32,000 nt of DNA from Candidatus Odinarchaeota archaeon (GTDB lineage Archaea > Asgardarchaeota > Odinarchaeia > Odinarchaeales > Odinarchaeaceae): NCBI GenBank assembly GCA_038826135.1, contig JAWBON010000005.1, positions 1 through 32,000 on the forward strand. The letters are read 5' to 3'. Positions 12,780 through 24,377 of the stretch are shown piece by piece; the stretch's first letter is position 1; each line of letters starts with the position of its first letter. A program made the translations under genes and the position numbers. The notes under the pieces were generated by a model, which saw only the letters and a list, made by a program, of their open reading frames with translations, did not search any database and was not told the DNA's origin.

Positions 12780-12792
12780 AAAAAAAGAAAAA
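12780..12792 (-). terminator. Oligo-T terminator downstream of tRNA-Met
   Basis: Minus strand TTTTTCTTTTTTT about 13 nt after the encoded CCA; typical archaeal U-rich terminator. Confidence 0.55.
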
Positions 12793-12804: not shown

Positions 12805-12986
12805 TGGTGCCGAGGGCGGGATTTTCCTCCCGACGGTGAGCACCTTTCAGGTTTTGAACCCGCGACTTCCGTCAGCTTGAATTTTACTGTTTCCGGATCT
12901 CTTATTCGTCTGACCCCTTTTTAACAGACAGATTATGAGTCTCGCCTCTTTGAACCGGCGCTCTAACCAGGCTGAGCCACCTCGGC
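12805..12986 (-). tRNA. Elongator tRNA-Met(CAT) with four BHB-type introns; CCA encoded
   Basis: Exons 12986-12955, 12940-12934, 12898-12891, 12866-12853 and 12821-12805 join into a 78-nt cloverleaf: GCCGAGG TG GCTC AGCCTGGTTA GAGC G CCGGA CTCATAA TCCGG AAGTC GCGGG TTCAAAT CCCGC CCTCGGC A CCA. Introns are 14, 35, 24 and 31 nt at 30/31, 37/38, 45/46 and 59/60. Confidence 0.9.
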
Positions 12987-13136
12987 GTTCAGTGTTTGAA
13001 TTTTACTTTATTATGTTAATTAACTTTACGCTAAATAATTTTTTGCAGCGTGGGGGGAAATAGGTTTAACCGGTAATAGTTTGAAACAGAGGTTTTATTA
13101 AGGTTTTATAGCTCATATTTATTATTGGTGGTGTAA

Positions 13137-24109: not shown

Positions 24110-24236
24110 GGCTCGGTGGCTCAGCCCGGCTAGAGCAACGGACTTGTAAGTTACTTGAAAACCGGGAGATCCGTCGGAAATAGTTGTCACCAGACCTATT
24201 GGCGAATCGGGGGTTCAAATCCCCCCCGAGCCTCCA
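24110..24236 (+). tRNA. tRNA-Thr(TGT) with two introns (24149-24168 at 37/38; 24178-24206 at 46/47); CCA encoded
   Basis: Spliced 78-nt cloverleaf GGCTCGG...ACGGA CTTGTAA TCCGT CGGTC GGGGG TTCAAAT CCCCC CCGAGCC T CCA. BHB1: CTTG-TA^A-GTT..AAC-CGGG-AG^A. BHB2: CGTC-GG^A-AATAG..CTATT-GGCG-AA^T. Confidence 0.9.
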
Positions 24237-24246
24237 TAATAAAAAT

Positions 24247-24377
24247 GGGGCGGTAGTCTAGCTTGGTATGATTCTGGATTTGGGATCCAGAGTTCTATAG
24301 GAGAGCCCTATAAACTGGAGATCACCGGTTCAAAAGATTAGCTGCCAGCTAATCTGAAATTCCGGTCCGCCCCACCA
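24247..24377 (+). tRNA. tRNA-Pro(TGG) with two introns (24293-24320 at 45/46; 24335-24360 at 59/60); CCA encoded
   Basis: Spliced 77-nt cloverleaf GGGGCGG...CTGGA TTTGGGA TCCAG AGATC ACCGG TTCAAAT CCGGT CCGCCCC A CCA. BHB1: CCAG-AG^T...CTGG-AG^A. BHB2 is strict: TTCA-AA^A-GATTAGCT-GCC-AGCTAATC-TGAA-AT^T. It lies 10 nt downstream of tRNA-Thr, so a dicistronic transcript is likely. Confidence 0.93.

Follow-up and report, generated by a model that had tools for sequence, protein, structure and literature searches.

An elongator tRNA-Met gene predicted to carry four introns in Odinarchaeales

The window, as we call the whole 32,000-nt stretch of DNA analysed here, is contig C5 of a Candidatus Odinarchaeota genome (G000; 1.26 Mb in 105 contigs, 93% complete). 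On its minus strand, a 182-nt stretch (12986-12805) encodes a tRNA-Met(CAU), and 104 of the 182 nt are intronic. On our reading, the locus is a real, conserved and single-copy elongator tRNA-Met gene with four predicted introns. We estimate a probability of roughly 0.87 that it is the sole functional elongator tRNA-Met(CAU) gene, with its four introns cut by the splicing endonuclease EndA and its exons joined by RtcB. An elongator tRNA-Met with four bulge-helix-bulge-type introns, at 30/31, 37/38, 45/46 and 59/60, had been proposed in an earlier note on the same DNA, and the proposal is borne out by the splicing motifs and the orthologues described below.

All elements of the gene lie on the minus strand. 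Exon 1 (12955..12986, 32 nt) spans tRNA positions 1-30, comprising the 5' strand of the acceptor stem, the D arm and the initial four bases of the anticodon stem. It is followed by intron 1 (12941..12954, 14 nt), which lies at 30/31, and by exon 2 (12934..12940), the 7-nt ACTCATA, which spans positions 31-37 and holds the CAU anticodon. Intron 2 (12899..12933, 35 nt) is at the canonical position 37/38 and is followed by exon 3 (12891..12898), the 8-nt ATCCGGAA, which spans positions 38-45 with the 3' strand of the anticodon stem. Intron 3 (12867..12890, 24 nt) interrupts the variable loop at 45/46, exon 4 (12853..12866, 14 nt) spans positions 46-59 with the last part of the variable loop, the 5' strand of the T stem and the greater part of the T loop, and intron 4 (12822..12852, 31 nt) lies in the T loop at 59/60, with the T stem as its outer helix. 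Exon 5 (12805..12821, 17 nt) supplies position 60, the T-stem and acceptor 3' strands, the discriminator A73 and the encoded CCA. On re-reading, the coordinates, the strand and the sizes of exons (32, 7, 8, 14 and 17 nt) and introns (14, 35, 24 and 31 nt) in the earlier note matched exactly, as did its placement of the anticodon on a 7-nt exon.

Removal of the four segments leaves a 78-nt RNA. Its perfect pairing, also claimed in the earlier note, was re-derived as a cloverleaf with 21 Watson-Crick pairs. The stems are GCCGAGG/CCTCGGC (acceptor), GCTC/GAGC (D) and CCGGA/TCCGG (anticodon), the anticodon loop is CTCATAA, the variable loop is AAGTC and the T arm is GCGGG-TTCAAAT-CCCGC. The conserved tRNA features U8, A14, G18G19, U33, A37, T54-C56, A58, discriminator A and CCA are all present. 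Split and permuted tRNA genes of the Nanoarchaeum, Caldivirga and Thermofilum type have their exons at separate loci or in permuted order. The five exons found here are collinear on one strand within 182 nt, which rules out a gene of that kind. Abutting the 5' end of the gene is an A+T-rich block (12987..13035, minus strand) that contains AAAGTTAATTAA and ATAATAAAG and is a putative archaeal BRE/TATA promoter; in an alignment of the five orthologous loci it was near-invariant within the genus though non-coding. T5 and T7 runs 13-25 nt 3' of the CCA end (12780..12792, minus strand) form a likely archaeal oligo-T terminator.

A bulge-helix-bulge motif consists of a 4-bp central helix and two 3-nt bulges on opposite strands, with cuts after the second bulge base. 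The four segments are of this type, intron 1 strictly and introns 2, 3 and 4 in relaxed form with one central mismatch each, and the motif strings that the earlier note gave for them were correct on re-derivation. Intron 1, the only strict motif of the gene in this genome (hBHBh'), has a central helix CGCC/GGCG with four of four pairs, bulges GG^T and AG^A, an outer helix GAG/CTC (G22-G24 with C32-C34) and an inner helix TC/GA. Its minimum-free-energy fold reproduced the central helix, the outer helix and the 3' bulge. Standard pairing at all four central positions is seen in 15 of 16 Asgard orthologues, two of those 15 using G.U. The relaxed class, with three of four central pairs, is frequent by chance (10.64898/2026.10.13.758758). 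Intron 2 in this genome has CTCA/TAAG with three of four central pairs and a C34.A mismatch; TGAG takes the place of TAAG in G005, an Odinarchaeales genome from another family, and in most other Asgard orthologues, giving a perfect, strict CTCA/TGAG helix. The inner helix of intron 2 co-varies among relatives (T-A versus G-C at pair 1, C-G versus G-C at pair 2), and 53 of 66 cells in it are paired, compared with 23-44 of 66 for a shifted partner.

Intron 3 is a relaxed HBh' motif with a central helix CCGG/ACGG (three of four pairs, G43.A mismatch), bulges AA^A and AA^G and an inner helix CAGT/GCTG, without an outer helix. Its second inner pair changes from A-T in the genus to G-C in G005, which is compensatory. 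For introns 2 and 3, the expected register was absent from the minimum-free-energy folds in this genome. Intron 4 has TTCA/GGAA with three central pairs (TTC/GAA), an A57.G mismatch and the 3' bulge AA^T; its 5' cut site lies inside a 4x2 internal loop beside the inner helix CCTGA/TCGGG, which is offset by one extra A, and this arrangement is visible in the minimum-free-energy fold. In G005, the T-loop intron departs from standard bulge-helix-bulge geometry. The cut sites of introns 2, 3 and 4 are ambiguous by 3 to 5 nt and were placed by motif fit together with the mature sequence of relatives. For intron 2, the initial atc equals the first bases of the following exon and the splice site is thus sequence-ambiguous, and for intron 4 the cut position is sequence-ambiguous across 56/57 to 59/60, with 59/60 as the motif fit. 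On inspection, the C and D boxes of a box C/D guide were not visible in the copy of intron 2 in this genome. No copy of the four Met introns above 67% identity over ~24 nt was found elsewhere in the genome (blastn-short; global alignment against other tRNA introns), and intron transposition thus finds no support.

In raw DNA, the tRNA-Met locus gave no match with ARAGORN or with the Rfam tRNA model, at the gathering score or at E-values up to 10. After removal of all four segments ARAGORN called a tRNA-Met(cat), a call that it also made with three segments removed and a single intron left in. A cloverleaf-threading solver written for this analysis, in which introns are allowed at three or more of the four central-helix pairs, ranked the four-intron model of the earlier note first, with a score of 48. 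When the interior of the locus was shuffled 60 times with the acceptor ends kept, 57 of the 60 shuffles could not be solved as a cloverleaf and the highest-scoring shuffle reached 19, compared with 48 for the gene. The four-intron cloverleaf is far beyond chance.

The gene was compared with its orthologues in three genomes of the same genus (G001, G002 and G003, of which G002 is closed) and in G005 (isolate H2M.186), which belongs to the other family of the same order named above. All four introns are at matching positions in these four genomes. Within the genus the exons are identical at 78 of 78 positions, and the introns are 83-85% identical, with indels. Exon 1 is the same in G001, G002, G003, G005 and the Bathyarchaeia tRNA-Met, and exact matches to its 32 nt were found in Candidatus Odinarchaeota J65_bin.29 and Odinarchaeia RPA3 and also in Atabeyarchaeia and Bathyarchaeia records. 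A metagenome scan with the exon-1 pattern returned Bathyarchaeia-like and Atabeya-like genes only, and no further Odin-type orthologues. Exon 3, ATCCGGAA, is invariant in the five Odinarchaeales genomes, where it is sandwiched by divergent introns, and a paired anticodon stem in G005 requires it.

The four introns differ in how widely they are distributed. The 37/38 intron is present in every orthologue examined, Bathyarchaeia included; at loci L001-L009, L018, L023 and L051-L061 it starts with atc and keeps GGGGTCAGA(T/C). The 30/31 intron occurs in 16 distinct Asgard orthologues, and the T-loop intron, among the Asgard families searched, in Odinarchaeales and three other families. Among the orthologues compared, only those of the five Odinarchaeales genomes have the variable-loop intron at 45/46 and the 8-nt exon. 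Since the Odin, Atabeya and Freya genes share the pattern atc...GGGGTCAGA, the 37/38 intron looks like one old homologous intron, which suggests that a single intron was retained at this site across Asgard classes.

Searches of the genome for CAU tRNA genes yielded just two, this locus and a multi-intron initiator. No second Met-like or Ile2 gene was found in the assembly by spliced alignment with the mature Met and Freyarchaeia Ile2 sequences, by CAU-loop scans with a canonical intron or by acceptor-stem-anchored scans, which can recover only genes whose acceptor stem is intact and whose CCA is encoded. The best matches to the Ile2 query turned out to be two tRNA-Lys genes. In the closed relative G002, DNA search gave one copy of the gene, and a CAU anticodon is absent from the 30 best Rfam tRNA matches. 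An intron-less elongator tRNA-Met elsewhere, a possibility raised by the earlier note, was found neither in this genome nor among those 30 best matches.

Could the locus be a decaying or silent relic, with Met decoded by an undetected gene that is split, permuted, more fragmented or located in the unassembled 7%? The assembly is incomplete, the scan anchors have the requirements given above, and G000 (93% complete assembly) gave no match for three of the expected tRNAs (Asn, Cys and the Ile(UAU)/AUA decoder). However, the exons of four species-level genomes have zero substitutions against 15-17% divergent positions in the introns, the block upstream of the gene is conserved, and the closed relative has a single copy by DNA search and no CAU among its 30 best matches. 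We therefore regard a relic as very improbable, and a functional gene as the preferred reading. An intron count of three is similarly hard to sustain. In that case one 59-nt intron at 40/41 would make up most of the 67 nt between ACTCATAATC and CGGAAGTCG, with the 8-nt 'exon 3' intronic, and a spliced aligner with a per-intron penalty favours this model. It also gives the identical 78-nt product in G000-G002, because intron 2 begins ATC and intron 3 ends CGGAA. In G005, however, intron 3 ends CCTGAA, so that the three-intron model yields CCTGA there and breaks the anticodon stem, while ATCCGGAA persists as a separate block between unrelated intron sequences. The 59-nt segment lacks a bulge-helix-bulge motif (one of four central pairs, score -2 versus 7-12 for the two separate introns), and the 37/38 boundary is common to every other orthologue. 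Across all threadings with up to four introns, the four-intron model ranked first by splicing-motif score in all five genomes. The three-intron threading was rejected on motif score and on the G005 anticodon stem, and we consider it a most unlikely description of a gene that is best read with four introns.

The identity of the tRNA has to be weighed in the same way. Initiator tRNAs have A1:U72 and three G:C pairs at 29-31:39-41. These features are absent from the gene, which has G1:C72 and the anticodon stem CCGGA/TCCGG; they are found in an initiator-type gene at C25:7153-7378 (plus strand), with A1:U72, AGCGGGG...CCCCGCTACCA and GGG/CCC. In tRNA-Ile2(CAU), C34 is converted to agmatidine and the tRNA reads AUA, for which TiaS is required. 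Since the CAU anticodon is common to Ile2 and Met, the gene might in principle encode tRNA-Ile2(CAU) with agmatidine at C34 rather than elongator Met. An AUA-decoding tRNA (Ile2 or Ile-UAU) was found neither in this genome nor among the standard matches of the closed relative, and the Freyarchaeia Ile2 gene likewise has four introns (PMC11291895). Against this, searches for the TiaS FLD domain (PF08489) gave no match in the five Odinarchaeales genomes G000-G003 and G005, of which one is closed, but three further Asgard genomes matched at E ~1e-40, among them Freyarchaeia, which has Ile2(CAU). Two Atabeyarchaeia genomes (G017 and G027) likewise gave no match. The mature sequence is identical to the Freyarchaeia Ile2 at 55 of 78 positions, compared with 69-75 of 78 for Met-typed genes: 75 for the single-intron Bathyarchaeia tRNA-Met, in which the bases are contiguous save for the canonical intron, and 69-72 for the Atabeya and Freya genes typed Met in PMC11291895. 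The Atabeya-2 orthologue is the same gene that is listed as Met in that table. The acceptor GCCGAGG and the stem CCGGA/TCCGG are of the Met family, whereas the Ile2 acceptor is GGGCCCG, and an Ile2 identity would leave the genome without an elongator Met gene. An Ile2 identity thus has only a slight chance of being right, and by its sequence the gene is an elongator tRNA-Met(CAU). The AUA decoder of Odinarchaeum may be another hidden, fragmented gene. An 'Ile tat' called by ARAGORN in G002 at 634681-634782 is really a Thr(GGU) gene with a variable-loop intron.

Matches to EndA (PF01974) fall in two distinct genes, on C45 and on C48/C72. The C48/C72 protein is closest to crenarchaeal heterotetramer catalytic subunits (3P1Z_B, 2CV8), and the C45 paralogue is more distant. 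Asgard archaea have an (alpha-beta)2 EndA with an L1 loop (Kaneta et al. 2018), and the predicted pair of paralogues fits this broad-specificity (alpha-beta)2 type. A contig boundary cuts the catalytic-type EndA gene, which extends beyond the start of C48 (C48:1-140) and resumes at the start of C72 (C72:1-127); the two contig ends share ~127 nearly identical bases, so that the contigs could be joined. RtcB (PF01139) is present on C16. Its gene (C16:2586-5357, plus strand) is one 995-aa open frame in which Pfam positions 1-50 and 49-426 are ~1.4 kb apart, and looks like a gene interrupted by an intein insertion.

In the maturation pathway that we propose, the A+T-rich promoter would probably give rise to a precursor of at least 182 nt, from which the archaeal splicing endonuclease would remove the four introns by cleavage at exactly these sites. 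RtcB would then join the five exons (32, 7, 8, 14 and 17 nt) into the 78-nt tRNA. The motifs overlap in the exon bases that they use: the paired positions are 22-28 and 32-34 for intron 1, 32-35 for intron 2 and 40-43 for intron 3. The outer helix of intron 2 is the anticodon stem, which intron 1 interrupts, and C40-G43 of the intron 3 motif is the 3' strand of that stem. In a fold with introns 1 and 2 both present, the intron 1 motif forms and the intron 2 motif does not. Because the motifs of introns 1, 2 and 3 share exon bases, the precursor would need to change its fold from one cut to the next. Most probably, introns 1, 3 and 4 would be cut first and the canonical 37/38 intron last.

Interrupted tRNA genes are the rule in this genome. 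We recognised 44 tRNA genes, comprising 30 Rfam loci (29 over the threshold and one weaker) and 14 from an acceptor/T-arm-anchored scan. About 38 of the 44 have introns, at ~1.7 per gene with most carrying one or two, and about six are intron-less; these counts are approximate, with long variable loops mis-assigned in a few class I tRNAs and seven solver failures resolved by eye. Fourteen of the 44, including the only elongator tRNA-Met, are under the Rfam tRNA threshold. The initiator tRNA gene on C25 has five introns (six according to the solver), one of them within the acceptor 3' strand, tRNA-Leu(UAG) (C75:2840-3021, plus strand) has four and tRNA-Gln(CUG) (C28:1819-1981, plus strand) has three. 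Within the window, tRNA-Pro(UGG) (24247-24377, plus strand) scores 20.7 bits, under the Rfam gathering threshold, and has two introns, one of 28 nt near the anticodon and one of 26 nt in the T loop. A tRNA-Thr(UGU) gene with two introns (24110-24236, plus strand) lies 10 nt upstream of it. Some intron sites recur in the genome: a minimum of seven introns use the T-loop site at ~59/60, five or more are at 53/54, and the variable loop accounts for at least eight.

The gene encodes an essential tRNA, is the only elongator Met gene found and is invisible to ARAGORN and Rfam, so that annotations of this kind would list the tRNA as missing. Incomplete tRNA sets were described in some of the new Asgard genomes surveyed by Kaneta et al. 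2018, and Odinarchaeota LCB_4 was among the genomes surveyed. Within one orthologous gene, the introns form a dated series of gains: 37/38 (shared with Bathyarchaeia), 30/31 (several Asgard classes), T loop (some) and 45/46 (Odinarchaeales). The gene would also be a compact substrate for testing a broad-specificity endonuclease on relaxed, mutually exclusive motifs and 7-8-nt exons. Taken together, the data allow a wider proposal, to which we give slightly less than an even chance: that Odinarchaeia are a third heavily interrupted Asgard class, unreported in surveys, that the 45/46 intron is an Odinarchaeales-specific gain on top of the Asgard-shared 30/31 and 37/38 introns, and that refolding is programmed, with the canonical intron removed last. 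As three of the four motifs compete for exon bases, programmed refolding would be needed if this is true.

The known splicing mechanism is unchanged by this gene, and the number of introns is no record. In the older literature, tRNA genes of Crenarchaeota/Thermoproteales are described with no more than three introns (PMC4090602), in agreement with the maximum given in the earlier note for Thermoproteales. Its suggestion that four may be a record is refuted by genes already tabulated in 2024, by a 2026 preprint that reports five, and by the five or six introns of the genome's own initiator gene. Supplementary Data 4 of PMC11291895 (Valentin-Alvarado et al. 2024) lists four introns in the Freyarchaeia Arg-TCT, Ile2-CAT and Leu-GAG genes and in Atabeyarchaeia-2 Trp-CCA, and Goswami et al. 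(2026 preprint, 10.64898/2026.10.13.758758) report up to five intervening sequences per Asgard tRNA gene, with 2.2 per gene in focal families and many introns missed by tRNAscan-SE. We found no description of Odinarchaeum tRNA introns in the literature.

Several of these systems resemble the Odinarchaeales gene in part. The Met orthologues covered by PMC11291895, at Atabeya-2 792623-792753 and Freya 1505101-1504955, have the 37/38 intron too, and those of Atabeya the 30/31 intron as well; however, these orthologues thread with two introns (three in Atabeya-1), and Odinarchaeia are outside that table. The heavy interruption of Asgard tRNA genes is common to our data and those of Goswami et al., but the main text of that preprint assigns it to Jordiarchaeia and Atabeyarchaeia, with Odinarchaeia unmentioned. 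It also inspects only genes detected by tRNAscan-SE, whereas the Odin gene was missed by ARAGORN and the Rfam tRNA model. Thermoproteales (Sugahara et al. 2007, 2008; PMC4090602) likewise have relaxed bulge-helix-bulge introns at non-canonical positions, several per gene, and an (alpha-beta)2 endonuclease. They differ in having up to three introns per gene and in belonging to another phylum, Thermoproteota, and their introns are not homologous to those described here. The elongator tRNA-Met genes of Bathyarchaeia and other archaea have the canonical 37/38 intron at the same site, an identical exon 1 and a mature sequence that matches at 74-75 of 78 positions. In contrast to the four introns of the Odinarchaeales gene, they have one, and they are detected by standard tools.
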